Shown here piece after piece: positions 21,413-42,816 of a stretch of DNA of 43,895 nucleotides (position 1 is the stretch's first letter; each line of letters begins with the position of its first letter). The DNA lies in NCBI GenBank assembly GCA_964629425.1, contig CAZVSO010000001.1, positions 1 through 43,895 of the forward strand. Reading direction: 5' to 3'. The DNA comes from an uncultured Gemmatimonadaceae bacterium (GTDB lineage: Bacteria; Gemmatimonadota; Gemmatimonadetes; Gemmatimonadales; GWC2-71-9). The notes below the pieces were generated by a model. That model saw only the letters and a program-made list of their open reading frames with translations, ran no database searches and was not told the DNA's origin. A program made the translations under genes and the position numbers.

Positions 21413-22431
21413 AGGCCGCCGTTTACCACGGGCCCGGGCGTGCGCTCGACGTGACCGAGGTCCCGAGCCCCGAGCCGGGTCCCGGGGAAGCGCTCATCCG
21501 GGTCGCGGCGTGCGGGCTGTGCCATACCGACCTTCACTACCTCGATCACGGCGTCAAGCCGTTCAAGGCGCCGCCCCTCATCCTGGGACACGAGGCCGCG
21601 GGCACGGTGGCTGGATTGGGCGACGGGGCGATCGGCGCCGCCGTCGGCGAGCGGGTACTGATCCCCTCGGTGCTCTCCTGCGGCCGCTGTCGCTACTGCC
21701 GGCTGGGGCGGGAGAACCTGTGCGATTCGCTCACGATGCTGGGGAACAACATCGACGGCGCGTTCGCGGAGCTGGTTGTGGTACCGGCCCGAGAGCTCGT
21801 GCGCCTGCCGGACTCGATCCCGCTGGAGCTCGCCTGCGTGATCGCGGACGCGTTATCCACCCCCTATCACGCCGTGAAGCGCCGGGGCCGGGTGCAGGCG
21901 GGGGACCGGGTGGTTGTGGTGGGATGTGGTGGGGTCGGCCTGAATGTCGTGCAGTGCGCCGCGATGGCCGGCGCGCTGGTCGTGGCGATCGACTTGAACG
22001 ACGCGCGGCTCGAGCTGGCCACGGCGCTCGGGGCGCTGCACACGGTGAATCCGCAGACCGTCGAGCGGGTCGACCGGCGCGTGCGCGAGCTCACCGGCGG
22101 GGGGGCCGACGTGGCGTTCGAGGCCGTTGGCAGTCCCAAGACCATCGACCTCGCCTTCGGGCTGTTGCGGCGGGGCGGCCGGCTGTGCGTGATCGGCTAT
22201 TCCGCCGAGCCGGCCTCGATCTCGGCGGCCAGGCTGATGTACTACGAGCTGGAGGTGGTGGGGAGCCTGGGGTGCGGGGCGGGGGAGTACCCGGAGATCA
22301 TCGCCCTCGTCGAAGCGGGGTTCCTGCGGCTCGAGCCCATCGTGAGCGGCACCCTGCCGCTCGTGGAGATCAATGTCGGTTTGGACCGGCTGCGACGCGG
22401 TGAAGGAGTGCGGTGGGTCGTGACGCCGTGA
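21409..22431 (+). CDS. Zinc-dependent alcohol dehydrogenase (MDR family; candidate 6-hydroxycyclohex-1-ene-1-carbonyl-CoA dehydrogenase)
   Basis: CGLCHTDLH, GHEAAGTV, structural zinc site CGRCRYCRLGRENLC, and the GCGGVGL Rossmann motif. Confidence 0.9.
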   Translation: MKAAVYHGPGRALDVTEVPSPEPGPGEALIRVAACGLCHTDLHYLDHGVKPFKAPPLILGHEAAGTVAGLGDGAIGAAVGERVLIPSVLSCGRCRYCRLGRENLCDSLTMLGNNIDGAFAELVVVPARELVRLPDSIPLELACVIADALSTPYHAVKRRGRVQAGDRVVVVGCGGVGLNVVQCAAMAGALVVAIDLNDARLELATALGALHTVNPQTVERVDRRVRELTGGGADVAFEAVGSPKTIDLAFGLLRRGGRLCVIGYSAEPASISAARLMYYELEVVGSLGCGAGEYPEIIALVEAGFLRLEPIVSGTLPLVEINVGLDRLRRGEGVRWVVTP

Positions 22432-22880
22432 GCGACGACCCGTTCCAGCGCTTCGAGGCCGAGCACCAGGAGGCGCTCGGTCAGCTGGACCGTCTCGAGG
22501 TGGCGGCGCGTGGGCTCCGCGCGCGAGCGGACCACGGCGCCCAGTTCGAAGTCGCGCGCGCGGTGCACCAGTTCCTCATCGGGGCGGTCCGGGCCCACAA
22601 CGACCGCGAGGAGCGAGCGCTGTTCCCGCTCCTTGGCGACGAGGCGCCCACCGGCTTGTTCGTCGAGGAGCACGGGACGCTGCGGGGACTGGAGCGGGAG
22701 CTGGACGCGGCCCTCCAGGCAGCGGACGCCGAGCGCAGCGCAGCGGCTGCGCTGGCGCTGGTCGATCTGCTGCGGGCACACATCGCCCGCGAGGACGTCG
22801 TCCTGTTCCCGGTGGCGAGGGCGAGGCTGGGAGACGTGGGGTTGCGGGAGCTTGCGCGGCGATTGGACGGCACAGGATAG
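22413..22880 (+). CDS. Hemerythrin-like (HHE cation-binding) domain protein
   Basis: Four-helix pattern with FEAEHQE, HNDREERALFPLL, EEHG and HIAREDVVLFP. The start is uncertain (GTG 22413 or GTG 22428). Confidence 0.7.
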   Translation: MGRDAVSDDPFQRFEAEHQEALGQLDRLEVAARGLRARADHGAQFEVARAVHQFLIGAVRAHNDREERALFPLLGDEAPTGLFVEEHGTLRGLERELDAALQAADAERSAAAALALVDLLRAHIAREDVVLFPVARARLGDVGLRELARRLDGTG

Positions 22881-22900
22881 CGGCGCGCGTACCGGGGCGA

Positions 22901-22952
22901 CACAACAAAGCGGCCCGCACTCCAGCTTTCGATTTCCTGGAGCGCGGGCCGC
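22901..22952 (-). terminator. Rho-independent terminator on the minus strand
   Basis: The minus strand reads GCGGCCCGCGCUCCAG-(11 nt loop)-CUGGAGUGCGGGCCGC. This is a 16-bp stem with one G-U pair, followed by UUUGUUGUGU. The plus-strand version has an A-C mismatch and no U tract. Confidence 0.65.
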
Positions 22953-23350
22953 TACGCACCGGTTACCCGGAGTCGGGGGATTTACTCCCCCGTTCTTCTC
23001 CTCTCGGCCACCGCAGTGTGTATCCGCGGTTGCGGCGTCGAGGGCTCCGGCTTCCATCCGCAGGCGGCGTGACGAGCCACCTGGTTCGCCGATGCGGGCG
23101 CTGCAAGTCCGATCGGGTCGCGGACCGACCCCTTGCACTGCACGCCGTCACGCCGGTCCGGCGTGGGTGAGGCACGCGACTGGCCCCACCGTCCGCCTCG
23201 AAGTGATCACCCGGGTCATCGGGCCGAGCCGTTTCCGGTTCTCCCTACCCCGGACATCTCGAAGGACGGATGCACACAAAACTACCCACCGACCTTGAAG
23301 CAGCCGTGAGGACCGCGCGAAGACCGGCTCAGGAACTCGCGGTCGCCGCG

Positions 23351-27663: not shown

Positions 27664-28293
27664 CGAGTGGCAACGTACGCGCTGCGGGACGACGCCGGGG
27701 CCATGGGGGTGCTGGTCGACGACCTGGCCGCCGTCGTCCGGCGAGTATCCGGCGGGGGCGGGCCGGCGGTCGTGATCGGGGAGTCGTTCGGGGGCGCCGT
27801 GGCGCTCAGCTTTGCGCTCGCCCATCCGTCGCTCGTGGCCGCGCTCGTCGTGCTCAACTCGTTTCCGCGGTTCTTGCCCCAGGGACGCCTGGACCTCGCC
27901 CTCTGGGCGCTGCGCGCCATGCCCTGGAACGCGATGGGCCTGGTGCGGCGCCTGACCGCCTTCCGGCTCCACTCGACGTACACGCACCATACAGAGATCC
28001 GGCGCTTCCTGGATCTGATGGCCGACACCACCCGGGACGGATATCTCGGCCGCCTCCGGATGCTGAGGGACTACGACGTGCGCGAGCGATTGCGGGAGAT
28101 CCGCGTGCCCACGCTGTTTCTCGCCGCCGGGCGCGACCATCTGGTGCCTTCCGTGGAGCAGGCCCGTTACATGGCCGCCCGAGTGCCCGGCGCGAGCATG
28201 CGGACGCTTCCGGGCCACGGGCACATCTGCCTTGTCGCGCCGGACGTCGACCTGGAGCGCATCCTCGCCGAATGGCGGCCGCCGGGCAGCTGA
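27568..28293 (+). CDS. Alpha/beta-fold hydrolase
   Basis: PPLVFVPGMDGTG oxyanion region, nucleophile elbow GESFGGA, and C-terminal GHGH. GTG 27568 is proposed because the upstream part of ORF 27421 is antisense to the TM region of the acyltransferase. Confidence 0.7.
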   Translation: MTGEGPPLVFVPGMDGTGRLFYRQVPLLAGRHRVATYALRDDAGAMGVLVDDLAAVVRRVSGGGGPAVVIGESFGGAVALSFALAHPSLVAALVVLNSFPRFLPQGRLDLALWALRAMPWNAMGLVRRLTAFRLHSTYTHHTEIRRFLDLMADTTRDGYLGRLRMLRDYDVRERLREIRVPTLFLAAGRDHLVPSVEQARYMAARVPGASMRTLPGHGHICLVAPDVDLERILAEWRPPGS

Positions 28294-28378
28294 CCCTGTA
28301 CCTCACCCCCTGGCCCCCTCTCCCTGCCGGGAGAGGGTGAACGGGTTGCCGCCGCCATCCAAGGCTGGGGCGTGCCCC

Positions 28379-28441
28379 GTGAAACGGGAGTGAAGGGCGC
28401 ATGAGGTGAAGGCGTTCACCCGTGCCTCAGCGCGGCTTCAC
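28379..28441. promoter_or_regulatory. Composite cluster of GTGAA/TTCAC pentamers upstream of archease
   Basis: GTGAA at 28379, 28390 (11-bp phasing) and 28406, with a further copy at 28337 outside this span. TTCAC at 28415 and 28437 (22-bp phasing). The last element starts 30 nt before ATG 28467. The TTCAS-N17-TTCAS geometry and distance match those upstream of the response regulator at 40258. Confidence 0.4.
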
Positions 28442-28466
28442 CCGGTGGGTCGCACGTTACAGCGAG

Positions 28467-29006
28467 ATGAATGCCTCCTTCGAAGTCCTCGAGCATACCG
28501 CCGAGGTGAAGCTGCGCGTGCGCGGGCCGTCGCTGGGAGCGCTGGCGGCGGAGGCGGGTCGTGCGCTCGCCCGGATCGAGCTGGGCGACGCAGCGCCCCC
28601 GGCCAGCGGGGGGTGGCGGCGCGTGGAGCTGAAATCTCGGGACCGTGACGCGCTGCTGGTCGACTGGCTGAACGAGCTCATCTATCTGGCCGAGGCTGAG
28701 CGGTGGGTCGGGGTGGAGTTCCTGGTGGACTCGGCGAGCGATACCGCGCTGACGATGCTCGCCCGGGGCGTGCCGGTCGCCGAGGCGCCCGCCCGAGTCA
28801 AGGCCGCGACGTTCCACGGCCTTCACGTCGCCGACCGGCCCGATGGTCTCGAGGCCGAGATCTTTGGGGTGCCATCGAGTGGGCGCGTTTCAAGGAGATC
28901 GTGCGCGAGCTGCCCGAGGTGGGCGAGGCGGTGGTCATCGCAGGCGCGTGAGGAAGGGCCACTAGTGGAACCGGAGGGGTCAGCGAGATGGCACACAAGC
29001 AGGTGA
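28467..29006 (+). CDS. Archease (RtcB-type ligase/methyltransferase accessory protein) with aberrant C-terminal extension
   Basis: MNASFEVLEHTAEVKLRVRG...LLVDWLNELIYL...VKAATFHGLHV...LEAEI matches archease end to end. The last ~50 aa are Arg/Ser-rich and run through a duplicated intergenic segment. Confidence 0.7.
   Translation: MNASFEVLEHTAEVKLRVRGPSLGALAAEAGRALARIELGDAAPPASGGWRRVELKSRDRDALLVDWLNELIYLAEAERWVGVEFLVDSASDTALTMLARGVPVAEAPARVKAATFHGLHVADRPDGLEAEIFGVPSSGRVSRRSCASCPRWARRWSSQAREEGPLVEPEGSARWHTSR
28953..29002 (+). repeat. Copy 1 of the duplicated HPF-CSD stop / SD / groEL start junction
   Basis: GAAGGGCCACTAG + 8 nt + GAGGGGTCAGCGAG + ATGGCACACAAGCAG. Compare with 31911..31951. Confidence 0.7.
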
Positions 29007-30199
29007 CGTTCCACCGAGGCGGGCCTCCTCAGCGAGGAGGTGTAAACAGGCCGGCGGAGCCGGCGGCACCGGGGATCCCCCTCCGTCTCACCGGCCTGCT
29101 GCGCCGCGGCCCGGACATCGTCTCGTGCTATCTCCGGCTCGAGCCCGAGGACCGCCAGGGCAAGCGGTACCTGCTGGAGCTGAAGGAGGCCGTGTCCGGG
29201 GTCAAGGAGACGCTGGCACGGCTCGCGCGCGAGCCGTGCCAGGGCGTCGAGCGGGACTTGGAGCGCATCATCACCTACGCCGCCCAAGTCGCCAACCTGC
29301 CTCGCACTCGCGGGGTCGCGATTTTCGCCTGCGGCGCGCTGAAGCTGTTCCAGGCGGTCCCGCTGCCGCGGGTCACCCGCACCCGCCTCAGGCTCGACTT
29401 GGTTGCCCACCTGCAGGAGCTGGCGGAGGTACAGCGGGAGTTCGGGACCGTCATCGCCGTGGTTCTCGATCGCGCGCATGCGCGCTTCTTCGAGGTGTCG
29501 GCGCTCGGGGCCGGGGAGCTGCCCTGCATGCGCCCGCCGGCCATGCGGGGCGGCAAGTTCCACGGCGATCCGGAGGGCGCCCCCGGCTGGGGAGAGGCGG
29601 ACTACCATCGCCGGATTCGGGAGGAGCGGCATCGTCACTATGCTGCCGTGGCGCGACAGCTCGAACGCCTCGACGGTCGCGCGGGCGCTGCCCAGCTGTT
29701 CCTGGCCGGGCCGGGACCGGTGGCCACGGAGTTCGGGCGATTCCTCCCACCGGCGCTGGCGGGACAGGTCGTCGGCACGGCACGACTGAACCCGACCGAG
29801 GTCACTCCGGCCGCGGTCTATGCGGCCGTGCTGGCGGCCCGGGCGCCCCAGGAGGCGGCCGCCGAGCGAGCGCTGGTCGCGGCGCTGGAGGAGGGGCTGG
29901 GCACGGGTTGGGCGGTGAACGGAGTCCGGCCCACGCTGGGCGCGCTGGCCCGCGGCCAGGTGCGTACCCTACTCTTGAGGCCCGACGTGAGCGGCGGGGG
30001 GTTCCGCTGCGGCGCCTCTGGCCCGCTGGCCCAGTCGCGCGCCGAGTGCCGCGGCGCGGGCGACGTGCTGCCGGTTTCCGATCTCGTAGGAGCGGCCATC
30101 GAGGACGCGCACCGGCAGGGCTCGAGCGTGAGCCTGATCCACCAGCCTGCCGAGGCGGCCCGGATCGAGGGGCTGGCGGCGCTGCTCCGGTTTCGCTGA
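28988..30199 (+). CDS. Bacterial eRF1/Pelota-like (baeRF-type) protein
   Basis: 403 aa. The C-terminal third resembles eRF1/Pelota domain 3 (WAVNGVRPTLGALARGQVRTLLLRPD ... Cys pair ... DLVGAAIEDAHRQGSSVSLI ... IEGLAALLRF). The N-terminus (IVSCYLRLEPED...) is like bacterial release-factor-like families. GGAGGGG SD upstream. Confidence 0.6.
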   Translation: MAHKQVTFHRGGPPQRGGVNRPAEPAAPGIPLRLTGLLRRGPDIVSCYLRLEPEDRQGKRYLLELKEAVSGVKETLARLAREPCQGVERDLERIITYAAQVANLPRTRGVAIFACGALKLFQAVPLPRVTRTRLRLDLVAHLQELAEVQREFGTVIAVVLDRAHARFFEVSALGAGELPCMRPPAMRGGKFHGDPEGAPGWGEADYHRRIREERHRHYAAVARQLERLDGRAGAAQLFLAGPGPVATEFGRFLPPALAGQVVGTARLNPTEVTPAAVYAAVLAARAPQEAAAERALVAALEEGLGTGWAVNGVRPTLGALARGQVRTLLLRPDVSGGGFRCGASGPLAQSRAECRGAGDVLPVSDLVGAAIEDAHRQGSSVSLIHQPAEAARIEGLAALLRFR

Positions 30200-30201
30200 G
30201 C

Positions 30202-30309
30202 GAGGCGATCGTCACCGATTTCGGCATCGCCAAGGCCGTGAGCGCCGCCGCCGGCGCCGGCGCCGCTGCGCACTCCGCCACCGCGACCATCCTGACGCTC
30301 CGCACCTGA
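30202..30309 (+). pseudogene. Possible relic of a Hanks-type Ser/Thr kinase (subdomain VII fragment only)
   Basis: The frame reads AIVTDFGIAKAVSAAAG...TILTLRT then stop. VTDFGIAKA is the kinase DFG/activation-loop signature. There is no upstream kinase body. Confidence 0.25.
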
Positions 30310-30321
30310 AGCACCGATGAA
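30306..30321. promoter_or_regulatory. Degenerate CTGAA-N6-ATGAA phased repeat upstream of the dodecin operon
   Basis: CTGAAGCACCGATGAA(AGC) resembles GTGAAGGCCGTGTGAA(AGC) at 25098. Orientation is opposite to the six best sites. A TTCATTCAC element lies at 30366..30374. Confidence 0.3.
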
Positions 30322-30432
30322 AGCCGGATGAGCCCAAGGGATGTTGTCCGAGAGCTCAGGCTGGCTTCATTCACGGCCACCGAGATTCAGGCGGTGAGTG
30401 GAGTCAGCACGCCGAATCCCGCGGAGGGCCCT

Positions 30433-30645
30433 GTGAGTACCATCGTCAAGGTCGTCGAGATCATCGCCCAGTCCGACAAGGGCTTCTCGGAAGCCGTGAG
30501 CAACGCGGTCCGGGAGGTGGGCAAGACGGTGCACGACATCAAGTCCGTATGGGTCGACAATTTCACGTGCAGCGTGGAGAAGGGCGCCGTCATCCAGTAC
30601 CGCGCCAACGTGAAGGTTTCCTTCCTCGTCGAAGGGCACAAATGA
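30433..30645 (+). CDS. Dodecin (small flavin-binding/storage protein)
   Basis: 70 aa from GTG 30433 (GGAGGG SD 4 nt upstream): VKVVEIIAQSDKGFSEAVSNAVREVGKTVHDIKSVWVDNF...YRANVKVSF. The longer track ORF start at 30328 adds non-protein-like sequence. Confidence 0.75.
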   Translation: MSTIVKVVEIIAQSDKGFSEAVSNAVREVGKTVHDIKSVWVDNFTCSVEKGAVIQYRANVKVSFLVEGHK

Positions 30646-31340
30646 TCACGGGCAACCTGCCGGACGGTCTGCCGCAGCCGGTCGTCATCCCGGCGCGCGC
30701 GGTGCGGCTCGAGGGAACGCTGACGCTGCCCGGTTACCCGAAGGGCGTCGTGTTGTTCGCTCACGGGAGCGGGAGCTCGCGCTTGAGCCCCCGCAACCGC
30801 TTCGTCAGCGACGTGCTGGTAGCGGCGAACATCGGGACGTTGCTCTTCGATCTGTTGTCGGCGGGGGAGGCTGCGGAGCGGGCGAATGTGTTCGACATCC
30901 CGCTTCTTGCCGAGCGTCTCAGTCTGGCGACCCAATGGGTGGCCGCCTCCCCCGCCACGACGGGGCTGCCCCTCGGCTACTTCGGGGCGAGCACCGGGGC
31001 GGCCGCCGCTCTGGTAGCAGCCGCAGGCACGGAGAGCAGGATCGGCGCCGTCGTCTCGCGTGGCGGCCGACCGGATCTCGCGGGCGACGCGCTGTCGCGC
31101 GTCACGGCTCCGACCCTCCTGATCGTCGGGGGGCTGGACGTGGGCGTTCTCGAGCTGAATCGCGATGCGCTGGCGCGCCTCCGGGGTGAGAAGCAGCTCG
31201 CGATCGTGCCGGGAGCTACCCACCTATTCGAGGAGCGAGGGGCGCTCGAGGAGGTTGCGCGACTCGCCGCCGGTTGGTTTGGGCGCTACCTGGGCGCGGG
31301 CGAGCCCGCCGTCGCGGCGCCGGCCGGTGTCACGGAGTAA
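30642..31340 (+). CDS. Dienelactone hydrolase-like alpha/beta hydrolase
   Basis: VVLFAHGSGSSRLSPRN, nucleophile elbow GASTGAAAAL, GATHLF. ATGA overlap with dodecin. Confidence 0.85.
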   Translation: MITGNLPDGLPQPVVIPARAVRLEGTLTLPGYPKGVVLFAHGSGSSRLSPRNRFVSDVLVAANIGTLLFDLLSAGEAAERANVFDIPLLAERLSLATQWVAASPATTGLPLGYFGASTGAAAALVAAAGTESRIGAVVSRGGRPDLAGDALSRVTAPTLLIVGGLDVGVLELNRDALARLRGEKQLAIVPGATHLFEERGALEEVARLAAGWFGRYLGAGEPAVAAPAGVTE

Positions 31341-31377
31341 GAATCGGGAGACGGGAGAGGGGAGAGGGGGGAAGCCT

Positions 31378-31923
31378 GTGCAGCTGCCGCTGCAGATCGC
31401 GGTGCGGAACACCACGTTGAGCGAGCCCGCCAGGGAGTTGATCCGCAAGTATGCCGCGAAGCTCGAGCTGTTCTTCGATCGGATCACCGCGTGTCGGGTG
31501 ATGGTCGAGGTGCCGCAGCGCTACCCGGTGGGCGAGCCGGTCGTGTACAACGTTCGGCTGGACATCACGGTCCCGGGTGAGGAGATCGTGGTGAGTCGCC
31601 AGCCGCATGTCGAGCTCGAGACGGCGATCCAGGAATCGTTCGACGCCGCTGGCCGCCGGCTGCAGGACTACGTGCGGCGCCTGCGCGGCCAGGTCAAGCA
31701 CCACGAGGGTTCGGGCTACGGCGTCGTGGCGGAGCTGTTCCCGTACGAGGGCTACGGGTTCCTTCGGACGGGGGACGGTCGCGATATCTACTTCCACAGG
31801 AACAGCGTGCTCCGCGGGGCGTTCCACGCGCTCGAGGTGGGGACGGCGGTGCGGTTTGCCGAGGAGCCGGGAGAGCAGGGTCCGCAGGCGAGCACGGTGG
31901 TGGTGGCGAAGAAGGGCCACTAG
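31378..31923 (+). CDS. Ribosome hibernation factor (HPF/RaiA S30AE domain) fused to a C-terminal cold-shock (CSD/OB) domain
   Basis: The N-terminal ~105 aa are HPF-like ([31 protein letters not shown]...[19 protein letters not shown]). The C-terminus is [20 protein letters not shown]...[16 protein letters not shown] start is preceded by a GGAGAGGGGGG purine tract. Confidence 0.8.
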
Positions 31924-31951
31924 GAGGGTCGGCGCCATGGCACACAAGCAG
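31911..31951 (+). repeat. Copy 2 (native context) of the HPF-CSD stop / SD / groEL start junction
   Basis: GAAGGGCCACTAG + GAGGGTCGGCGCC + ATGGCACACAAGCAG. The 13-mer encodes the KGH-stop of the HPF-CSD gene and the 15-mer encodes MAHKQ of GroEL. Confidence 0.7.
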
Positions 31952-33556
31952 ATCCTGTTCCGCGCGGCCGCGCGGGAGAAGGTGCTCCGCGGAGCCACGG
32001 CGCTGGCCGACGCGGTGCGCATCACCCTGGGCCCGAAGTCGAAGTGCGTGCTGATCGAGCAAAAGTGGGGCGCGCCGCTGGTATGCAACGACGGCGTCAC
32101 CATCGCGAAGGAGGTGGACCTCAAGGACGCCGGGGAGAACCTCGGCGCCCAGGTGCTGCGCGAGGCGGCGGCGCGCACGGGAGAGGCCGTGGGCGACGGC
32201 ACCACGACGGCGACGTTGCTGGCGCACGCCATCTTCGCCGAAGGGCTGCGGAACATCGCGGCGGGGGCGAGCGCGATTGACCTGAAGCGAGGGCTCGATC
32301 GCGGCGTGCGGGTGGCGGTCGAGGCGCTGCGGCGTCTCTCCCGGCCCGTGAAGAGCCGGCGCGAGAAGGCGCAGGTTGGCACGATCTCGGCGCACAACGA
32401 TACCACCATCGGCGAGCTCGTCGCCGACGCGGTGGAGCGGGTGGGCGCCGAGGGCGTCATCACCGTGGAGGAGGCGAAGGGTACCGAGACCGCGCTCGAA
32501 GTGGTCGAGGGGCTGCAGTTCGACCGGGGCTACCTGTCCCCCTACTTCGTAACAGATCCGGCCAAGATGGAAGCGGTGCTCGAGGACCCGATGATCCTGC
32601 TCCATGAGAAGCGGATCGGCGCGATGAAGGATCTGCTCCCATTGCTGGAGCAGGTGGCCAAGGCCGGCCACTCGCTGCTCATCGTGGCGGAGGATGTCGA
32701 GGGCGAGGCGCTCGCCACCCTGGTGGTCAACAAGCTCCGGGGCACACTCGCGTCCGTAGCCGTGAAGGCGCCGGGGTTCGGCGACCGTCGCAAGGCGATT
32801 CTCGAGGACGTGGCGATCCTGGCGGGCGGCCGCTTGATCGCCGAGGAAGTCGGGCTGCGGCTGGAGCACGTGACACCCGCCGAGCTGGGCTCGGCGAAGC
32901 GGGTGGTCGTGGGTCGTGAGACGACGACGATCATCGGCGGCGCCGGCCAGAAAGACGCGATCACCGGACGCTGCGCCGACCTCCGCACGCAGATCGAGAA
33001 GGCGACGTCCGACTACGACCGCGAGAAACTCGAGGAGCGGCTGGCCAAGCTGGCGGGTGGTGTGGCGGTGATCCGGGTCGGCGCGCCGTCGGAGACGGAG
33101 CTGAAGAGCCGCCGCGAGGCGTTCGAGGACGCGATCAACGCCACCAAGGCGGCGATCGCCGAAGGGATCGTGCCCGGTGGCGGGCTCGCCCTGCTGCGGG
33201 CGATCGATGCCGTCGAGCGCGAGGCCGGGCGCTGCGCGGGGGACGAAGCCACGGGGATGCGTATCCTGCGCCGGGCCCTGGAAACGCCCACCCGGCAGAT
33301 CGCGGAGAACTCGGCCGCCGATGGCGGTGTCGTCGTCGAGCGGATGCGCTCCGGCAGCGGCAACTTCGGCTTCGACGCCGCGCGCGGCGAGTACGTGGAC
33401 CTCGTCGAGGCGGGGATCATCGATCCAACCAAGGTCGTGCGCGTCGCCCTGGAGAACGCCGTGTCCGTGGCGAGCGTGTTGCTCCTGACGGAAGCCACCC
33501 TCACCGAGTTGCCGGAGCCGAAGGCCGAGGCGCGGGCCACCGCCGAAGAGCTGTGA
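31937..33556 (+). CDS. groEL: Chaperonin GroEL (Cpn60) paralog without adjacent GroES
   Basis: [45 protein letters not shown] and GIVPGGG all match GroEL. The C-terminus lacks the GGM repeats. Confidence 0.95.
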
Positions 33557-33577: not shown

Positions 33578-34513
33578 TCAGCCGTGCACCAGCAGGTCCG
33601 CCAGCGAGCGATTCTCGTGCAGCCGGCTGATGACCTCGGCGAGCAACGACGCGAGGGTGACGACGCGCAGCGGGAGGGCGCCGGTGGCCGGGAGCGCTAC
33701 ACTGTCGGTCACCGTGATCTGGCGGAGCGGCAGGGCGGCGAGACGCTCGACCGCACCGTCCACCAGCAGGGCGTGGGTCGCGATCACCGTGAAGTCGGGC
33801 CGGCAGCCTGCCGCGAGCAGCGCCGCCACCGCCGCGGCTATCGTGCCGCCGGTGCTGATCATGTCGTCCACGATGATCGGGGAGCGGTCCCGGACGTCTC
33901 CGGTGATGCCCCGCACCGCGACTTCCGTCCCGTCCACCCGCGTCTTGTGGACCAGCGCCACCGGCAGGTCGAACAGCCGCCCATACCGGTCCGCCAGTCG
34001 GGCGGCGCCGAGGTCCGGTCCAACGACCACCCCGTCTTCCGCCACGGCCTGCCCCGCTTCGGCGAGCGCCGCCACCGCGCTGAGGTGCTCCAGGGGACAG
34101 GCGAAGAACCCCTCCAGCGCCGACGAGTGGAGGTCCACGGCCACCACGCGGTCGATGTGGCACGTGGCCAGGATATCGGCCACGAGCCGGGCGCCGACCG
34201 GCTCCCGCCCGCCCGCGCGGCGATCCTGGCGCGCGTAGCCGAAGTACGGCACGACCGCGGTGAGCCGGTCGGCCCCGGCACGGCGGCACGCGTCGGCGAG
34301 GAGCAACAGCTCGAGGAAGTTGCTCTCGAACGGCGGCGCCGTGGACTGGAGCAGATAGACGTCGTGCGCTCGGACGCTGTCGCGCACCGCGACGTGGAGC
34401 TCGCGGTCCGGAAAGCGGTGCAGGCTCACGGTCCCGAGCTGCACGCCCAGGCGGCCGGCTACCGCTTCGGCGAGGACCGGGTTCGCGGAGCCCGTGACCA
34501 GGGTGAGGAGCAT
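33578..34513 (-). CDS. prs: Ribose-phosphate pyrophosphokinase (PRPP synthetase)
   Basis: 311 aa: FPDRELHV, VVPYFGYARQDRR, VAVDLHS, PIIVDDMISTGGTI. The rest of track ORF 33578..36352 is antisense shadow of polX. Confidence 0.93.
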   Translation of the reverse strand: MLLTLVTGSANPVLAEAVAGRLGVQLGTVSLHRFPDRELHVAVRDSVRAHDVYLLQSTAPPFESNFLELLLLADACRRAGADRLTAVVPYFGYARQDRRAGGREPVGARLVADILATCHIDRVVAVDLHSSALEGFFACPLEHLSAVAALAEAGQAVAEDGVVVGPDLGAARLADRYGRLFDLPVALVHKTRVDGTEVAVRGITGDVRDRSPIIVDDMISTGGTIAAAVAALLAAGCRPDFTVIATHALLVDGAVERLAALPLRQITVTDSVALPATGALPLRVVTLASLLAEVISRLHENRSLADLLVHG

Positions 34514-34630: not shown

Positions 34631-36370
34631 ATGCCCGTCGAGAACGCAGAAGTCGCGCGGCTCTTCCGCGAGCTGGCCGATCTGCTCGAGATCCAGGGCG
34701 CGAACCCCTTCCGGGTCCGCGCCTATCGCAACGCGGCCCGCACCGTCGAGGAGCTGCCCGAGACGGTGGCGGAGCTGGCGCGCGCCGGCCCCAAGCGGCT
34801 CGCCGAGCTGCCCGGCATCGGCACCGACCTCGCCGGGAAGATCGTCGAAATCGTCGAGACCGGCACGCTCGCAGCGCTCCACGAGGCCACCCGCGAGGTG
34901 CCCAAGGGCCTGGTGGCGCTCATGCGCGTGCGGGGCCTCGGTCCCAAGCGCGCGCGGGCGCTGTATGACGCTCTCGGCATCGCCTCGATCCAGGAGCTCG
35001 AACAGGCGGCCCGTGCCGGGCGCATTCGCGAGATCAAGGGGTTCGCCGCCAAGACCGAGCAGCACATCCTCGATGAGCTGGCCGCCCGGCGCGAGATGGG
35101 TGGGGACCAACGGCTGCCGCGAGCGACGGCGGCGCCGTACGGCGAAGCCTTGCTCGCCTACCTGCGTGTCCTCCCGGGTGTGCGGCGGGCGGAGATCGCG
35201 GGCAGCTACCGGCGCGGCAAGGACACGGTGGGGGACCTCGATATTCTCGTGGATGCGCGCGACGACGCGGCGGTGGCGGACCACTTCGCCGCGTATCCCG
35301 AAGTGGAGGCCGTGCTGGCGCACGGGCCAACCAAGGTGTCCGTGCGGCTCCGCTCGGGGCTCCAGGTGGACCTCCGCGTTCTCCCGCCGGAGAGCTACGG
35401 GGCGGGCCTGCACTATTTCACGGGGTCGAAGGCCCACAACATCGCCGTGCGCCGGCTCGGGCAGCAGAGAGGGCTGAAGGTCAGCGAGTACGGCGTATTC
35501 CGCGGGGAGAAGCAGATCGCGGGGCGCACCGAAGCCGAGGTGTACGAGGCCGTGGGTTTGCCGTGGATCGCGCCGGAGCTGCGAGAGGACCGGGGCGAGC
35601 TCGAGGCGGCGCGCGAAGGGCGGCTCCCGCACCTCGTCGAGCCGAGCGACATCCGCGGCGACCTCCAGATGCACACGACGAGCTCCGACGGCCGGGGGTC
35701 TCTCGCGGAGATGGCGAAGGCCGCGCAGGAGCTGGGCTACGAGTACATCGCCATCACCGATCATACGCCGGCGCTGCGAATGGTGCAGGGGCTGGATGCC
35801 GCCGGATTCCGGCGTCAGATGAAGGACATCGACCGGCTCAACGCGCGCCTGCGCACGCTCACCGTTCTCAAGGGCGCCGAGGTGGACATCCGTCCCGACG
35901 GGTCGCTCGACCTCGACGACGAGACCCTGGCGGCGCTCGACCTCGTGGTCATCTCGGTGCACTCGAAGCTCGACCTCTCCGAGCGCAAGCAGACGGACCG
36001 GATCCTGCGCGCCCTGCACCATCCCGCTGTGGACGTGCTCGGTCACCCGACCGGCCGCCTGCTCGGCCGGCGGGCACCGATGCAGCTCGATCTCGAATGG
36101 GTCTGCCGGGCGGCGGCGGACCACGGCGTGTTGCTCGAGGTGAACGCCCAGCCCGAGCGGCTCGACCTCGACGACGCGCAGACCCGGGCGGCGCTCGAGC
36201 TCGGCGCGGGGCTCGTGATCTCGACCGATGCCCACGCACCCTCGGAGCTGCGGTTCATGCGGTGGGGCGTGGAGCAGGTGCGGCGGGGCTGGGCGGAAGC
36301 ACGGCACGTGGCGAACACGCGGCCGCTGAAGGAGCTGCTCAAGCTGCTGCACCAGGGGCGGCGCGGCTAG
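34631..36370 (+). CDS. polX: Family X DNA polymerase with C-terminal PHP phosphoesterase domain (PolX)
   Basis: N-terminal 8-kDa/HhH region (LLEIQGANPFRVRAYRNAAR, LPGIGTDLAGKI). Palm GSYRRGKDTVGDLDILV. PHP domain GDLQMHTTSSDG...ITDH...VISVHS. Confidence 0.92.
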   Translation: MPVENAEVARLFRELADLLEIQGANPFRVRAYRNAARTVEELPETVAELARAGPKRLAELPGIGTDLAGKIVEIVETGTLAALHEATREVPKGLVALMRVRGLGPKRARALYDALGIASIQELEQAARAGRIREIKGFAAKTEQHILDELAARREMGGDQRLPRATAAPYGEALLAYLRVLPGVRRAEIAGSYRRGKDTVGDLDILVDARDDAAVADHFAAYPEVEAVLAHGPTKVSVRLRSGLQVDLRVLPPESYGAGLHYFTGSKAHNIAVRRLGQQRGLKVSEYGVFRGEKQIAGRTEAEVYEAVGLPWIAPELREDRGELEAAREGRLPHLVEPSDIRGDLQMHTTSSDGRGSLAEMAKAAQELGYEYIAITDHTPALRMVQGLDAAGFRRQMKDIDRLNARLRTLTVLKGAEVDIRPDGSLDLDDETLAALDLVVISVHSKLDLSERKQTDRILRALHHPAVDVLGHPTGRLLGRRAPMQLDLEWVCRAAADHGVLLEVNAQPERLDLDDAQTRAALELGAGLVISTDAHAPSELRFMRWGVEQVRRGWAEARHVANTRPLKELLKLLHQGRRG

Positions 36371-36471: not shown

Positions 36472-37413
36472 GTGTTCCAACGCCAGCCGATCGTCGTGGG
36501 CGTGGACGGGTCGCCGGAATCGACTCGGGCCGCGCGCCTCGCCTGGACGCTGTCGCAGGCTACGAGAGGTCCCTGCCACCTCGTGCACGGCATCGGGTAT
36601 CCGGTTGCCGACTCGACCTTCGGGATCGCCCCGGCGTCGTTGTCCCCGGTGTTCGAGCAGCTGCTCGCCGCCGCACGGAGCGACCTCGAGCGCGCGCTCA
36701 CCGGCACCATCCCGGCGGACGTGCTGCGCGGGCTGGACGTGCGGATCGGGCGGCCCGCGCGGGTGCTGGCGCAGGCGGCGGCGGAATACCGGGCGGGGAT
36801 GGTCGTCGTGGGCGGCGAGCCGCATGGCGCGATGGCGCGCGCGCTCGGCGGCAGTACCGCTCACGGGCTCACCCGCGTGCTGGAGGTCCCGGTGCTGGTG
36901 ACGAGCCGCCTGCCGCGCCCCATCACTCGCATCCTGGTGGCCGTGGATCTGTCGGAAGCGGCCCGGGTGACCCTGGCCGCCGCCGGCGCGCTCAGTGAAG
37001 CGCTCGGTGCGCGGCTGCGGGCGTTACACGTGGTGGAGCCGCTGATCTTGCCGCCGGGCGTCGCGCTGACAATCGCCCCCGAGGAGCTGTACCGGCGGCA
37101 GGAAGCGGCGTTCGAGGAACTCCTGGCGGGCGAGGCGCGGGTCGCGCCGAGCGACCGGGTGACGCGCCAGGGGCCGGCGGTGGACATGGTCGCCGAGGAG
37201 GCAGCCACCTGGGAGGCGGATCTCCTGGTAGTGGGCTCGCACGGCAAGGGCTGGGTGGATCGGCTGATGCTGGGGAGCACGACCGAGCGGCTGCTCGGCC
37301 TCCTACCGACGTCGCTCCTGGTGGTGCCGGCGTGGCTGCGGCCGTCGCGGCTCAAGAACGGGGCACGCCGGAGGGACCGTGCCGTGCACGGGCGTCGGGT
37401 GGCAGTCACGTGA
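36472..37413 (+). CDS. Universal stress protein, tandem UspA domains (USP2, paralog of USP1)
   Basis: IVVGVDGSPES... and ILVAVDLSEAA...LLVVGSHGKGWVDRLMLGSTTERLL...LLVVP. It can be aligned with USP1 at the DNA level in the C-terminal region. Confidence 0.85.
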   Translation: MFQRQPIVVGVDGSPESTRAARLAWTLSQATRGPCHLVHGIGYPVADSTFGIAPASLSPVFEQLLAAARSDLERALTGTIPADVLRGLDVRIGRPARVLAQAAAEYRAGMVVVGGEPHGAMARALGGSTAHGLTRVLEVPVLVTSRLPRPITRILVAVDLSEAARVTLAAAGALSEALGARLRALHVVEPLILPPGVALTIAPEELYRRQEAAFEELLAGEARVAPSDRVTRQGPAVDMVAEEAATWEADLLVVGSHGKGWVDRLMLGSTTERLLGLLPTSLLVVPAWLRPSRLKNGARRRDRAVHGRRVAVT

Positions 37414-37425
37414 AGGAGAACGGTG

Positions 37426-37827
37426 ATGAGAGTCGCTGACCTGATGCGGACGGACCTCACGACGATCAGCGTGGACGGGACGGTGGCAGACGCCGTGGCG
37501 ATTCTGGCGGACACTCGGCTCTCCGCGCTGCCCGTCGTGGACCGATGGGGACGGGCGGTCGGCGTCCTGTCCACGCGGGAGATCCTCGAAGCCGAGCACC
37601 GGTGCAACGGTCCGGCGGCACGGGATCGGCTGTTCGAGCGCACGCGAGCGCTCGAGCTCATGGCCCCGTGGCCCGTGACCATCACGCCCGAGCCGGACGT
37701 GACCGATGCGGCTCGCCAGATGCTGTATCTCGGCGAGCAGCGGCTGTTCGTGGAGGACCAGGGACAGCTGGTGGGCGTCATCTCGCAGACCGACATCGTC
37801 GGGGCCGTGGCGACCGCGCGGATCTAG
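37426..37827 (+). CDS. CBS-pair domain protein (CBS2, paralog of CBS1)
   Basis: MRVADLMRTDLTTI...VADAVAILADTRLSALPVVD...VTDAARQMLYLGEQRLFVEDQGQLVGVISQTDIVGAVATARI. AAGGAGA SD 6 nt upstream of ATG 37426. Confidence 0.85.
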   Translation: MRVADLMRTDLTTISVDGTVADAVAILADTRLSALPVVDRWGRAVGVLSTREILEAEHRCNGPAARDRLFERTRALELMAPWPVTITPEPDVTDAARQMLYLGEQRLFVEDQGQLVGVISQTDIVGAVATARI

Positions 37828-37950
37828 CGCGGGCGCGGGCACCCCTTGAGGCGCCGGATCGCGGGCGGGCGCGAGGCCGTCCGCCAGGTCGGCGCCGTGC
37901 CACGCGAGCAGCTGGACGCCCTGGTCAGGTCGCTGGTGCCACCCTAGACG

Positions 37951-38031
37951 GGAGCAGGGAGCACAGAGCAGTTGCCCCCGGTCCGCACGCCAATTCTGCA
38001 CCGTGGGGAACTGCTCCCAGCTCCCTGCTCC
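37951..38031. repeat. Long imperfect inverted repeat (81 nt hairpin) between convergent CBS2 and USP3
   Basis: GGAGCAGGGAGC (37951-62) pairs perfectly with GCTCCCTGCTCC (38020-31). Inner stem AGAGCAGTT/AACTGCTC. Further CCCC.../...GGGG pairing occurs in the loop. Confidence 0.5.
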
Positions 38032-38036
38032 TCAGC

Positions 38037-38873
38037 TCACACCGGGACCGTAAGCACCGCGCAGGGCGCCCGGTGCAGCACCCGGGGTCCCACGCCGCTT
38101 GCGTCGGGAGGAGCCACCTCGCCCGGGTGGTAGCCGATGGCGATGACGTCCATCCCCTCGACGCGCGCCAGCTTCAGGATCTCTCCCGCTGCATCGCCCT
38201 GTCGGACCAGGGCGGGGGCTGCGGCGACGGCGCCGGCCGGGCCGGCGTCGCCGGGCGGGACGGGGAGGTGGTGTGGGGCCCCAGCGGCGGCGGCGCCTCG
38301 CGGCTCGACATGCAACGGGAACAGCTCGCTGCCGAAGAGCCGGGCGAACGCCGTCGCGCGCTCGAGCACGCCGTCGGACGCCGGGCTCGAGCCCAGCGCC
38401 GCGAGCACCCGGCCCCAGGTGCGCTGGCCGAACGGGACGATCAGGCACGGCAGCCGGGCCCGGCGCACCGTCGCGGTCAGGGTGCGACCTGCCGGCCGGC
38501 GCTCGAACTCGCCGACCGGTTGCCGACCCAGCACGAGCAGGTCGGCCCCTTCGAGCTCGGCCCAGCGGGCGAGCTCGACGGCAGGCAGGCCGAACCGCAC
38601 CATCGGCTGCGGGCGGGCCACGGTGGTGACGGAATTGATCAGGCTCTCCAGCTCCCGTACCGCCGCCGTCCCCGCTTCGTCGGCAAACGAACCCGCACGC
38701 AAGCGGCGGTGCCCCTCCACCAGGCTGGGGTCGAGGTACTCCCACGGGTTCTCGACGATGCGGAGCACGGCGAGGTGGGCGTCGGCCGCCGCGGCGATCT
38801 GCGCCGCGACGCGTAACGCGTGCATCCCCGCGGGCGACCGGTCGACGGCCGCGATGATCCTGGTGAACTGCAT
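38037..38873 (-). CDS. Universal stress protein, tandem UspA domains (USP3)
   Basis: IIAAVDRSPAGMHAL...LLVLGRQP... and RVLAALGSSPAS...VIAIGYHPGE...VLHRAPCAVLTVP. Confidence 0.8.
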   Translation of the reverse strand: MQFTRIIAAVDRSPAGMHALRVAAQIAAAADAHLAVLRIVENPWEYLDPSLVEGHRRLRAGSFADEAGTAAVRELESLINSVTTVARPQPMVRFGLPAVELARWAELEGADLLVLGRQPVGEFERRPAGRTLTATVRRARLPCLIVPFGQRTWGRVLAALGSSPASDGVLERATAFARLFGSELFPLHVEPRGAAAAGAPHHLPVPPGDAGPAGAVAAAPALVRQGDAAGEILKLARVEGMDVIAIGYHPGEVAPPDASGVGPRVLHRAPCAVLTVPV

Positions 38874-38911
38874 CGCATCCCCCTCTGTTGCCGCAGCTTA
38901 TCGCGGTTCGC

Positions 38912-38927
38912 CTGAAGCCACCCTGAA
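38912..38927 (-). promoter_or_regulatory. TTCAG-N6-TTCAG direct repeat, candidate operator in the USP3/GAF-kinase divergent region
   Basis: Plus strand reads CTGAAGCCACCCTGAA, 38 nt upstream of the USP3 start codon. Confidence 0.45.
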
Positions 38928-39023
38928 GCGAGCGTGAGAACTGGGGCAACCAGTCGGCCTAGCCACCCGCCGGGGCGCGCCATTACGTTGCCGGGGCGCC
39001 GGGAGCCGGCCGGTTGAGCGGAG

Positions 39024-40250
39024 GTGGGTGGAGTGAGCCACGATGAGGCCGCGCGGGTACAGGGGCGGTTCGAGCGCCTGCTGTCGGCAGGCGCCGCGAT
39101 CCTGTCCGAGCATTCACTCGAGCAGGTGCTGCAGCGGGTCGCGGATCTGGCACGGGAGGTTCTGGACGCGCGCTACTCGGCGCTCGGCGTCCTCGACGAA
39201 GGCGGGACGTCGCTCGCGGAGTTCGTGACGTCTGGTCTGAGCGCGGCGGAGCGGGTGCGCATCGGCGCGCTCCCCCAGGGCCGCGGCCTGCTGGGCCTGG
39301 TGATTCGCGAGGGCAAGCCGATCCGCACCCGGGATATCGGCGCCCACCCGCAGCGCTACGGCTTCCCTCCCCACCACCCGCCGATGATGTCCTTTCTCGG
39401 CGTGCCCATCGTCGCCCGGGGTCGGGTGTTCGGGAATCTCTATCTCACCGACAAGGTGGCCGCCGCGGAGTTCTCCGAGGAAGATGAGCGCATCGCCGTG
39501 CTGCTGGCCGGGCAGGCTGCGCTCGCCGTGGAGAACGCCCGGCTCCTGGACGAGCTGCGCGCGCTGCAGCGGCAACGCGACCTGTTCTTCGCGATGATGA
39601 ACCACGAATTGCGGAACGCGCTCACCGGGGTGTACGGCTGGGCGGAGCGGGTCATCGGCGCCAAGTCGCCGGACGCGGCGGCCCGGGCCGGGCGCGAAGT
39701 CTACGAAACCGCCGAGCGGACCATCGGCCTGCTCAACAACCTGCTGGATCTCAGCCGCCTCGATGCCGGCAAGATGCGGCCCGTGTGGCAGGACGTGCAG
39801 CCGCGGCGGGCCGTCGAGCGGGCCATCACCGGCCTCCGGCCCAGCGCGGAGGCGAAGCGGGTCCGGATCGAGGAGCGCTACGGCGCGGCGGCGACGGCCC
39901 GGCTGCGGACGGACGCCATGCGCCTCGAGCAGATCCTGGTCAACCTGCTGTCGAACGCCGTGCGGCACAGCCCGGAGGGGTCGGCGATCGAGATCTGCGT
40001 CGAGGCCGCCTCGCCGGGGGTGCACTTCCATGTGAGGGACCGGGGTCCCGGGATCCCGATAGAGCAGCAGGCGCTCATCTTCGAGCCGTTCGAGCGCGTC
40101 GATCCGCATGCCGGGCTGGGGTCCGGGCTGGGCCTGGCGGTGTCGCGGCGCCTGGCCGGGCTGCTCGGCGGCCGGCTGACCGTGACCAGCGAGCCGGGCG
40201 AGGGCGCCCGGTTCACGCTCACGTTGCCGCCCGAGCCCCCGTCGACATGA
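39024..40250 (+). CDS. GAF-domain sensor histidine kinase (GAF + HisKA + HATPase_c)
   Basis: GAF: GALPQGRGLLGLV...GFPPHHPPMMSFLGVPI..GRVFGNLYLTDK. H-box MNHELRNALTGV. N/G boxes NLLSNAVRHSP, DRGPGIP, GLGSGLGLAVSRRL. No TM segments seen. Confidence 0.85.
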   Translation: MGGVSHDEAARVQGRFERLLSAGAAILSEHSLEQVLQRVADLAREVLDARYSALGVLDEGGTSLAEFVTSGLSAAERVRIGALPQGRGLLGLVIREGKPIRTRDIGAHPQRYGFPPHHPPMMSFLGVPIVARGRVFGNLYLTDKVAAAEFSEEDERIAVLLAGQAALAVENARLLDELRALQRQRDLFFAMMNHELRNALTGVYGWAERVIGAKSPDAAARAGREVYETAERTIGLLNNLLDLSRLDAGKMRPVWQDVQPRRAVERAITGLRPSAEAKRVRIEERYGAAATARLRTDAMRLEQILVNLLSNAVRHSPEGSAIEICVEAASPGVHFHVRDRGPGIPIEQQALIFEPFERVDPHAGLGSGLGLAVSRRLAGLLGGRLTVTSEPGEGARFTLTLPPEPPST

Positions 40251-40257
40251 AGGTTCC

Positions 40258-40284
40258 TTCAGGACTCCTTTATAGTCGGTTCAG
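40258..40284 (+). promoter_or_regulatory. TTCAG-N17-TTCAG (22-bp phasing) flanking a TATAGT box upstream of the response regulator
   Basis: TTCAGGACTCCTTTATAGTCGGTTCAG lies in an AT-rich island. The second pentamer starts 28 nt before ATG 40308. The geometry matches 28415/28437 before archease. Confidence 0.35.
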
Positions 40285-40307
40285 TGCCTGAGGCGTAGAG
40301 TGCCACC

Positions 40308-40994
40308 ATGAAGATCCTCGTCGTCGAAGACGATCGCAAAGTCGCGGGCTTCATCGAGCAGGGTCTCCGCGAAGAAGGCTATGCCGTCGACGTCGCGCCG
40401 GACGGAGACGAAGCGACGATGCTGGCGCACGTGTACGAGTACGATCTCGTCGTGCTCGACGTGATGCTTCCCAAGAAGACCGGCCTGCAGGTGGCGGCCG
40501 AGCTGCGGCGCGAGGGTCGCAAGACGCCGATCCTGATGCTCACCGCGCGGGATGCGACCGAAGAGGTGGTCCGCGGGCTCGACGCCGGGGCGGACGACTA
40601 CGTGACCAAGCCGTTCAAGTTCGACGAGCTGCTCGCCCGGGTCCGGGCGCTGCTGCGGCGCGGGGGCTCGGCCCGCACCGAGCTGCTCAACTACGGCCCC
40701 GTGGAGCTCGACCGCCTGAAGCACAAGGCCCGGGCGAACGGCAAGACGCTCGACCTTACCCCCAAGGAGTTCCACCTGCTCCAGCACTTCCTGTTGCACC
40801 CCGAGGAAGTCGTGCGGCGCACCGAGCTGCTCGAGAAAGTGTGGGACATGCACTTCGACCCCGAGAGCAACGTCGTCGACGTGCACGTCGGGAATCTGCG
40901 GCGCAAGCTGAAGCACGCCGTGGGGATGGACCTGATCGAAACGGTGCGCGGCGTCGGATTCCGCCTGCAGCTGCCGGACCGAGTCGACGCGTGA
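40308..40994 (+). CDS. OmpR/PhoB-family response regulator
   Basis: Receiver domain (KILVVEDD, DLVVLDVMLP, LMLTAR, KPF) plus a winged-helix C-terminal domain (LTPKEFHLLQHFL...VVDVHVGNLRRKL...IETVRGVGFRL). Confidence 0.93.
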   Translation: MKILVVEDDRKVAGFIEQGLREEGYAVDVAPDGDEATMLAHVYEYDLVVLDVMLPKKTGLQVAAELRREGRKTPILMLTARDATEEVVRGLDAGADDYVTKPFKFDELLARVRALLRRGGSARTELLNYGPVELDRLKHKARANGKTLDLTPKEFHLLQHFLLHPEEVVRRTELLEKVWDMHFDPESNVVDVHVGNLRRKLKHAVGMDLIETVRGVGFRLQLPDRVDA

Positions 40995-42397: not shown

Positions 42398-42401
42398 GCC
42401 C

Positions 42402-42812
42402 GTGATCGACGACCAGGTCCTCGCCACCGCGAAGGCGAGCTACGACCGCTGCTGCGCCGCGCCGGAGTTCTTCCAGTCTTTCTACCGGACGTTCTTCGAG
42501 GCCTGCCCGGAAGCCAAACCGCTATTCGCTCGTACCGACTTTGACCGGCAAAACAGGCTGCTGCGCCACGCCATCGGGCTACTGCTGATCTTCCCCCGGC
42601 AGCCGCACGGCGAGCCCAACCTGCTGAGCCGGATCGCCGAGCGTCACAGCCGCCAGGGGCTGGGGATCGAACCACGTCTCTACCCCCTGTTCGTGGACGC
42701 GCTGATGGCCACGGTGCGGAAGTTCGATTCGGTGTACACGCCGGCGGTCGAGCAGGCGTGGCGCGCGACCGTGGCGCAGGGGGTCGGTTACCTGCAGTCC
42801 AAGTACTACTAG
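42402..42812 (+). CDS. Single-domain globin
   Basis: 136 aa. FFQSFYRTFFEACPEAKPLF (B/C helices), Q in an E7-like position, IAERH (candidate proximal His), YPLFVDALMATV. Starts 5 nt after the kinase stop. Confidence 0.72.
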   Translation: MIDDQVLATAKASYDRCCAAPEFFQSFYRTFFEACPEAKPLFARTDFDRQNRLLRHAIGLLLIFPRQPHGEPNLLSRIAERHSRQGLGIEPRLYPLFVDALMATVRKFDSVYTPAVEQAWRATVAQGVGYLQSKYY

Positions 42813-42816
42813 AGGA

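Follow-up and report, generated by a model that had tools for sequence, protein, structure and literature searches.

Archease beside a Balon-like gene in a Gemmatimonadaceae contig, the likely scar of an rtcB deletion

In a 43,895-nt contig of about 71% GC from an uncultured Gemmatimonadaceae bacterium (GCA_964629425.1, CAZVSO010000001.1; hereafter the window), an open reading frame (ORF) for archease, the activator of the RNA ligase RtcB, extends from 28467 to 29006 on the + strand (179 aa; Pfam Archease, E 6e-22, aa 5-132) and runs into the start of a 403-aa ORF (28988-30199, + strand; Pfam baeRF_family10) encoding a protein that resembles the release factor aeRF1. We consider it likely that this adjacency is the scar of a deletion that removed rtcB, and that the 403-aa product is a factor of the Balon/baeRF-1 kind. 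An earlier note on this DNA had regarded the two genes as a pair forming a ribosome rescue, RNA repair or hibernation module. The overlap that it described was confirmed (19 nt), and a search covering the 43.9 kb window likewise agreed with it in finding no RtcB (tblastn with Gemmatimonadales RtcB, best E 0.29; Pfam scans of the other large ORFs). For comparison, 98 related loci were fetched, among them 85 by relatives of the 403-aa protein and ten by close archease relatives; the nearest relatives of the window contig were all Gemmatimonadales metagenome-assembled genomes.

The archease ORF and its junction

Only codons 1-132 of the ORF (28467-28862, + strand, ending in GLEAEI) are archease, whereas the 47 codons after them result from reading pieces of other genes out of frame. 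The archease part scored 78.9 bits against the Pfam cutoff of 25 and matched MTH1598 in the PDB (E 7e-9). Alignment with 11 relatives revealed that it is colinear with them up to GLEAEI (codon 132, 28860-28862) and diverges afterwards, so that the last four codons present in all relatives ([VIL][VILF]DV-stop) are missing; the C-terminal consensus ...EA[ED][VI][VIL][LF]DV-stop was found in 11/11. Archease homologues are mostly 136 aa long (range 123-220 among the 120 listed) and, except for the identical copy P0121, those listed cover only 66-74% of the window ORF. The closest intact archease, in locus L087, is 81-82% identical and 136 aa long, ends in GLEAEIVLDV before its stop, and has rtcB directly after it.

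The deletion junction lies at 28855-28864 (+ strand), where alignments with L087, L088 and L062 revealed microhomology between CCGAGATC and CCGAGGTC of a GYD gene. Two additional T bases (28863-28864) shift the archease and GYD frames out of phase by 2 nt, and from 28865 to 28951 (+ strand) the 3' remnant of the GYD gene follows, consisting of its last 27 codons and TGA (WGAIEWARFKEIVRELPEVGEAVVIAGA before the stop) in a frame other than that of archease. The GYD protein of L062 matched the window with residues 81-107 (tblastn, E 9e-7), that of L088 (Pfam PF08734) ends in VWSAIEWPKFKAMVRELPEVSGVIAVPA before its stop, matching the remnant, and the remnant frame has a high G+C content at third codon positions (GC3), as read directly from the sequence. 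A complete GYD domain (about 100 aa) is not present at 28865-28951, which holds only these last 27 codons and gives no Pfam match. The other-frame peptide after archease had also been considered as a remnant of the RtcB N-terminus, which was rejected as it matches the C-terminus of GYD proteins. The out-of-frame archease tail (28863-29006, + strand; 47 codons, FGVPSSGRVSRR...WHTSR before the stop) spans the GYD remnant and reaches into the start of the next gene; it is rich in R, S and W with low GC3, and among the listed homologues none covers it except the identical copy.

A probable second scar follows at 28951-28987 (+ strand), comprising the 3' end of an HPF-CSD gene (AGG AAG GGC CAC TAG, RKGH and stop; HPF-CSD denotes an S30AE/HPF domain with a cold-shock domain, CSD) and a spacer that includes the Shine-Dalgarno sequence GGAGGGG (28973-28979), 8 nt 5' of the 403-aa ORF. 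This stretch aligns with the HPF-CSD 3' end and the spacer directly 5' of the orthologous baeRF gene in L081, the closest orthologue (78% identity), which has HPF-CSD and not archease directly upstream. There is thus probably a second breakpoint, at which the GYD stop meets the end of the HPF-CSD coding sequence, although we hold this with less confidence because the aligned stretch is short.

Both the metagenomic origin of the window and the position of the junction beside a short homopolymer could raise the suspicion of a chimeric contig or of an indel within the TTTGGGG run. However, the separately assembled contig L086, from the Joint Genome Institute (JGI), has 26 mismatches to the window in 15911 positions, without any indel over these 15.9 kb, and carries the identical 120-nt junction; because a contig with 26 single-nucleotide polymorphisms (SNPs) shares it, we conclude that the junction was created neither by misassembly nor by a homopolymer error. 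Nor can the junction be due to a single indel, because its flanks belong to different genes, and an artefact is therefore exceedingly unlikely. A frameshift error in the GGGG run was likewise rejected, the bases in L086 being identical. An exact 30-nt search for the junction in metagenome contigs gave no match, in a collection evidently without L086, which itself carries the junction.

The neighborhoods of archease in relatives show what was probably lost. In Gemmatimonadales loci with an intact archease, rtcB lies directly downstream in 14 of 15, while in the remaining one (L027) it is found on the opposite strand at a distance of about 2.3 kb, and in all ten loci fetched by close archease relatives (L087-L089, L092-L098) the distance is about 20 nt. 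Among the 85 loci of the 403-aa relatives, archease occurs within 10 kb in five, all with rtcB, which immediately follows archease in four of them (L001, L005, L016, L085). In L088 and L089, whose archease is 71% identical, the genes are arranged as YkuD, a DLH-like gene (- strand), archease, rtcB (475 aa), GYD and universal stress protein (Usp), and a YkuD gene is found upstream of archease in the window as well. An HPF domain gene follows rtcB in two of the ten close-archease loci, with GYD thereafter in one (L098). As an observation in its own right, archease, rtcB and HPF (S30AE) form one operon in L093 (1172-3326) and L098 (5001-7509), so that an RNA ligase and a hibernation factor are directly co-encoded. 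In L085, archease 5' of rtcB (6266-6640) is apparently split over two frames and called as 74 aa, maybe owing to a frameshift or a sequencing error.

The segment of L088 equivalent to the deleted DNA amounts to 1709 nt and comprises the last four archease codons, the whole of rtcB and about 80 GYD codons. We therefore propose that the starting operon would have been archease-rtcB-(HPF)-GYD with archease first, and that the loss of about 1.7 kb at, or close to, the microhomology CCGAG(A/G)TC would have removed the last four archease codons, rtcB and the first approximately 80 GYD codons. At a probable second breakpoint the GYD stop would have been fused to the last codons of the HPF-CSD gene formerly preceding baeRF, leaving an archease ORF that reads 47 nonsense codons into the baeRF start. 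Compared with the archease-RtcB operon (Desai et al. 2014, PMC3973293), the window retains the archease domain, and relatives keep the order archease-then-rtcB; it differs by having no rtcB, an archease without the C-terminal metal-binding Asp and carboxylate, and the 47-aa nonsense tail.

The metal site of Pyrococcus horikoshii archease is formed by two conserved Asp and the C-terminal carboxylate (PMC3973293), and the exchanges D12A or D141A as well as removal of the last residue caused a drastic drop in RtcB activation (PMC3973293, Desai et al. 2014). In the window, the N-terminal acidic ligand is kept within EHTAEV, with Glu as in all Gemmatimonadales relatives (cf. HTAD), as is the conserved Lys (VKAATFH). 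The C-terminal Asp is replaced by Gly and followed by 44 extra residues, the sequence reading ..EIFGV vs ..DV and stop in 11/11 relatives. Because the C-terminal Asp and the free carboxylate of the metal site are lost, the 179-aa product is, judged from its sequence, most likely inactive as an RtcB cofactor. An archease still serving an rtcB elsewhere in the genome, with its present neighbor being incidental, would be in keeping with a domain that is intact to residue 132, including HTAE and VKAATFH, and with the out-of-frame FGV, which happens to preserve the hydrophobic pattern of the last strand. Yet both altered positions, the Asp exchanged for Gly and the carboxylate displaced by 44 residues, are metal ligands whose loss was drastic in P. 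horikoshii (PMC3973293), and the rtcB of all relatives is the very gene deleted here, which makes a working cofactor unlikely. A relative-rate test against L087 with 8 outgroups showed no acceleration in the first 132 archease codons, and for this reason the test proves neither decay nor function.

The pairing proposed in the earlier note fared poorly in this comparison, since archease in relatives always occurs with rtcB, the junction represents the deletion that removed it, and an rtcB-less archease beside a baeRF gene was seen in the 98 loci only in the window and its near-identical copy. A functional two-gene module, in which a remodelled archease was re-purposed from RtcB to a ribosome-bound factor, could be argued from the identical junction in two strains that differ by SNPs, the unaccelerated archease part, an ORF overlap that would permit translational coupling, and the location of both genes in one motif-marked regulon (see below). 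Against it stand the restriction of the arrangement to these two contigs, a tail that is an out-of-frame read of another gene, the loss of residues required for archease activity, and the HPF-CSD gene, not archease, upstream of the closest baeRF orthologue; taken together, we regard such a module as very unlikely. That the remodelled archease was retained as a new partner or translational leader of the Balon-like factor appears very improbable, too; if true, a cofactor of RNA repair would be tied directly to ribosome hibernation, with RtcB playing no part.

The 403-aa protein as a distant Balon relative

The second element of our reading concerns the 403-aa protein, which scored 53.9 bits with Pfam baeRF_family10 (PF18854; cutoff 27.1) and 36.6 bits with baeRF_family2, and has abundant homologues in Gemmatimonadales (413 with E <= 1e-3). 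An AlphaFold2 model built on a 33-sequence alignment (predicted local distance difference test 83.7, predicted template modelling score 0.80) comprises three domains, preceded by 27 disordered N-terminal residues: an N domain (about aa 30-140), a middle domain (about aa 141-305) with a flexible loop at 178-203 (RGGKFHGDPEGAPGWGE; low confidence at about 181-200) and the basic helix RRIREERHRH, and a C domain (about aa 306-403) with a two-strand insert at 338-348. The insert holds two Cys, and the modelled strands 338-341 and 347-348 lie at the C-domain insert site and may correspond to the hairpin by which Balon contacts EF-Tu.

The Foldseek search of the PDB was led by ribosome-bound MSMEG_1130 (Balon; E 5.9e-21, template modelling score 0.57-0.60, on the 70S ribosome), followed by aRF1, Psychrobacter urativorans Balon (about E 1e-16), Rv2629, eRF1 and Pelota, with Balon homologues holding ranks 1, 2 and 4-7. 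A profile search of PDB sequences retrieved Pelota, aRF1, MSMEG_1130, Rv2629 and Balon, whereas a search with the single sequence gave only Pelota at E 0.087, so that profile and fold searches were needed. The best NCBIfam matches were the MSMEG_1130 and Rv2629 hibernation-factor families. The profile and structure comparisons thus describe a three-domain bacterial aeRF1/Pelota-like protein and no unrelated fold, and they bear out the likeness to eRF1/Pelota that had been noticed at its C-terminus, where ...IEGLAALLRFR lines up with GLAALLRFR, in which Pelota and aRF1 end.

Neither the NIKS codon-recognition motif nor GGQ is present in the sequence and alignment of the 403-aa protein, and the profile alignment places the GGQ of aRF1 over GWG. 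Homologues share an invariant loop, ...RGG[KR]F..D....PGWGE..[YF]H.RI.EE.HRH. No Gln was found in loop residues 178-205 (GDPEGAPGWGE), nor in the loop of the closest relatives; several other sequences of the alignment do have one there. The HP dipeptide is absent from the N domain, a comparison to be read in light of the Balon motif positions having been published in figures only.

Balon proteins are without NIKS and GGQ; alongside RaiA and EF-Tu, they associate with vacant or stalled ribosomes at the A site (Helena-Bueno et al., Nature 2024, PMC10901736), and their genes typically adjoin RaiA/HPF, Hsp20 or RtcB (PMC10901736). The statement that bacterial aeRF1 homologues lack an experimental function is therefore outdated, since Balon, MSMEG_1130 and Rv2629 are structurally characterized A-site hibernation factors (PMC10901736). 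With these three, which are its best structural matches in the PDB, the 403-aa protein shares the three-domain aeRF1-like fold, the absence of NIKS and GGQ, a location beside an HPF/RaiA-type factor in a stress cluster and, in related genomes, an RtcB neighbor; its modelled two-strand insert in the C domain may be a further common feature. It differs in that the identity is only 15-22%, and in its own invariant RGG...GWGE loop motif and the two Cys in the insert. Archaeal aRF1 and Pelota are similar at the profile level (E 6e-8 and 8e-9) and have the C-terminal GLAALLRFR in common; their structural scores are lower than those of the Balon proteins, and their codon-recognition and catalytic motifs are absent here.

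The HPF neighborhood of baeRF families was reported in 2019 (Burroughs and Aravind, PMC6514570). With family 10 of the baeRF-1 clade (PMC6514570, PF18854) the 403-aa protein shares a score above the gathering threshold, the full three domains and the HPF neighborhood; the Gln singled out as conserved in that family (PMC6514570) is absent from it and from its island-type relatives. For family 10, an active alternative release or rescue factor with peptidyl-tRNA hydrolase activity was proposed in 2019. Such a role here could draw on the conserved Gln noted for the family (PMC6514570), the invariance of RGG and GWGE in the loop, and the RFH-RtcB precedent linking release to RNA repair (PMC6514570). 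The prfH/RFH-RtcB module indeed resembles the present case in encoding a release-factor-like protein with an RNA ligase, and L085 and L016 hold archease-rtcB and baeRF in one cluster; however, RFH is a bacterial-type release factor with GGQ, while the factor in the window is of the aeRF1 type, without the Gln and without a ligase in the window. As the loop of the protein and its closest relatives contains no Gln, the GGQ of aRF1 falls over GWG, the best structural matches are non-catalytic Balon proteins and the gene context is one of hibernation (HPF-CSD), we consider catalytic release improbable.

We instead infer from fold and context that the 403-aa protein is a distant hibernation factor of the Balon type. 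In analogy to Balon, MSMEG_1130 and Rv2629, its role would be that of a non-catalytic factor filling the A site of the ribosome in dormancy, and together with HPF-CSD, encoded 1.2 kb downstream, it would keep idle ribosomes inactive and protected. While the fold and gene context are directly seen in model and sequence, the A-site function is suggested by this analogy.

Several points weigh against the combined reading of an rtcB-removing deletion and a Balon-like factor. The evidence for the second scar amounts to about 25-45 aligned bases, and no relative showed the order GYD, HPF-CSD, baeRF from which two clean deletions would have to start. The unaccelerated archease codons fit a recently orphaned gene or one that is still constrained, and an rtcB may lie outside the 43.9 kb window. 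Finally, the NCBIfam scores fall far short of the equivalog cutoffs (42.9 vs 480 for MSMEG_1130, 36 vs 320 for Rv2629); by these sequence scores, the 403-aa protein is a distant relative and not a member of either equivalog.

In a neighbor-joining tree, the island-type baeRF copies, that of the window included, fall outside a large paralogue clade with a different context. This majority clade of baeRF_family10 paralogues in Gemmatimonadales sits inside a methylmalonyl-CoA mutase operon, as in L090 (5250-12037), where the order is MeaB, the catalytic mutase subunit, baeRF10 (its start overlapping the end of the mutase gene), a HAD hydrolase, the B12-binding subunit and a carboxyltransferase. 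The mutase gene was found within 4 kb of baeRF10 in 65 of 80 loci (L001-L080), a context unmentioned in the 2019 baeRF paper (PMC6514570).

The stress island and its direct repeat

Of the module put forward in the earlier note, the surrounding cluster of hibernation and stress genes (HPF-CSD, GroEL, dodecin) is well founded, while the pair of archease and eRF1-like protein as its core is not. Downstream of the 403-aa ORF, the + strand encodes dodecin (30328-30645; Pfam E 1e-20, domain aa 39-102, the true start perhaps being later), a DLH-like alpha/beta-hydrolase (30642-31340; weak Pfam Hydrolase_4), HPF-CSD (31378-31923; gene call in L086, Pfam S30AE E 2.6e-9 and CSD E 3.8e-9) and a GroEL paralogue (31937-33556). 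Ribose-phosphate pyrophosphokinase (PRPP synthetase; 33578-34513, - strand) and PolX (pol beta-like and PHP domains; 34631-36370, + strand) are recurrent island members, followed on the + strand by a tandem-domain Usp (36472-37413) and, at 39024-42397, three candidates for regulating the island: a GAF histidine kinase, a response regulator of the OmpR family (40308-40994) and a HAMP histidine kinase. The downstream region also encodes a CBS protein, a second Usp, a globin and a P-type ATPase; hemerythrin and a BON protein are encoded upstream of the locus.

The island genes recur in differing orders around orthologous baeRF genes (L081, L082/83, L085, L001/5, L016, L062, L075), with HPF-CSD adjacent to or near baeRF in the window, where both are on the same strand, and in L081, L082/83, L016, L075 and L001/5. 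The HPF protein of the island combines S30AE/HPF with a C-terminal cold-shock domain instead of the usual dimerization domain of long HPF, a fusion also present in L081-L083, L016, L062 and L075. The flanks of the baeRF cluster (36472-43893 and 22413-22880), with two Usp, CBS, GAF kinase, OmpR-type regulator, HAMP kinase, globin, P-type ATPase and hemerythrin, resemble the mycobacterial DosR-type hypoxia/dormancy regulon that contains Rv2629, and an equivalent set of kinase, regulator and ATPase follows baeRF-PolX in L085. In several relatives, a short gene (about 150-300 aa) resembling no more of PolX than its N-terminal HHH domains and separate from full-length PolX lies directly 5' of baeRF (L001 4900-5346, L005 9123-9560, L016 3091-3540, L054 9114-9506, L083 2943-3854).

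A tandem direct repeat, TGAAR-N6-TGARR with an 11-bp period, is matched 10 times in the window, compared with an expectation of 0.14: at 10330, 23296, 25099, 28380-28440 (three), 30307-30322 (+ strand), 34557 and 38913-38939 (38913, 38924). Nine of the ten lie outside ORFs read as genes, the exception (28425-28440) being inside the mechanical ORF 28422-29006. The repeats are found upstream of archease, dodecin, PolX (34557), the GAF kinase (38913, 38924) and YkuD, and the three 5' of archease (28380 and 28391 on the + strand, 28425 on the - strand) precede its ATG by 27-87 nt, making 28380-28440 a candidate operator/promoter region of the archease operon. One match (23296) falls in a 470-nt gene-free gap (22881-23350) between convergent hemerythrin and ZIP transporter genes, which may hold a small gene or RNA.

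The repeat recurs in L087, L088, L093, L095, L097, L098 and L016, where it precedes archease by about 75-100 nt, and it is also found in relatives upstream of baeRF-containing (HPF-CSD/baeRF), dodecin and Usp operons; because of these shared upstream repeats, both ancestral operons appear to belong to one stress regulon. The repeat is a candidate operator for the OmpR-family regulator of the island, suggested because an 11-bp period suits such a regulator. The baeRF gene of the window has no copy immediately in front of it, and therefore the promoter that once served archease-rtcB probably drives its transcription in this strain. A scan of 28200-31500 for sigma-70 promoters and terminators found none.

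Significance for hibernation in Gemmatimonadales

Balon/baeRF neighborhoods with HPF and with RtcB are already published, and the eRF1-like gene is a new, divergent Balon/baeRF hibernation-factor relative in a neighborhood of this type; a literature search for archease and hibernation together returned nothing relevant. The analysis removes a tempting false lead, the "archease-eRF1 module", by reading the adjacency as a recent deletion scar, and it suggests that a large protein family of Gemmatimonadales belongs with the Balon-type hibernation factors. It further depicts archease-rtcB, HPF, Balon-like, GroEL, dodecin, PolX and Usp genes as one island that is constantly reshuffled in the phylum, and because this island is marked by a common direct-repeat motif, a regulon experiment would be straightforward. 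The side observations, namely the regulon motif, the natural rtcB deletion and the paralogue in the methylmalonyl-CoA mutase operon, are maybe worth more than the original lead. As a natural rtcB deletion, this strain could, in comparison with its intact relatives, show what RtcB contributes in dormancy.

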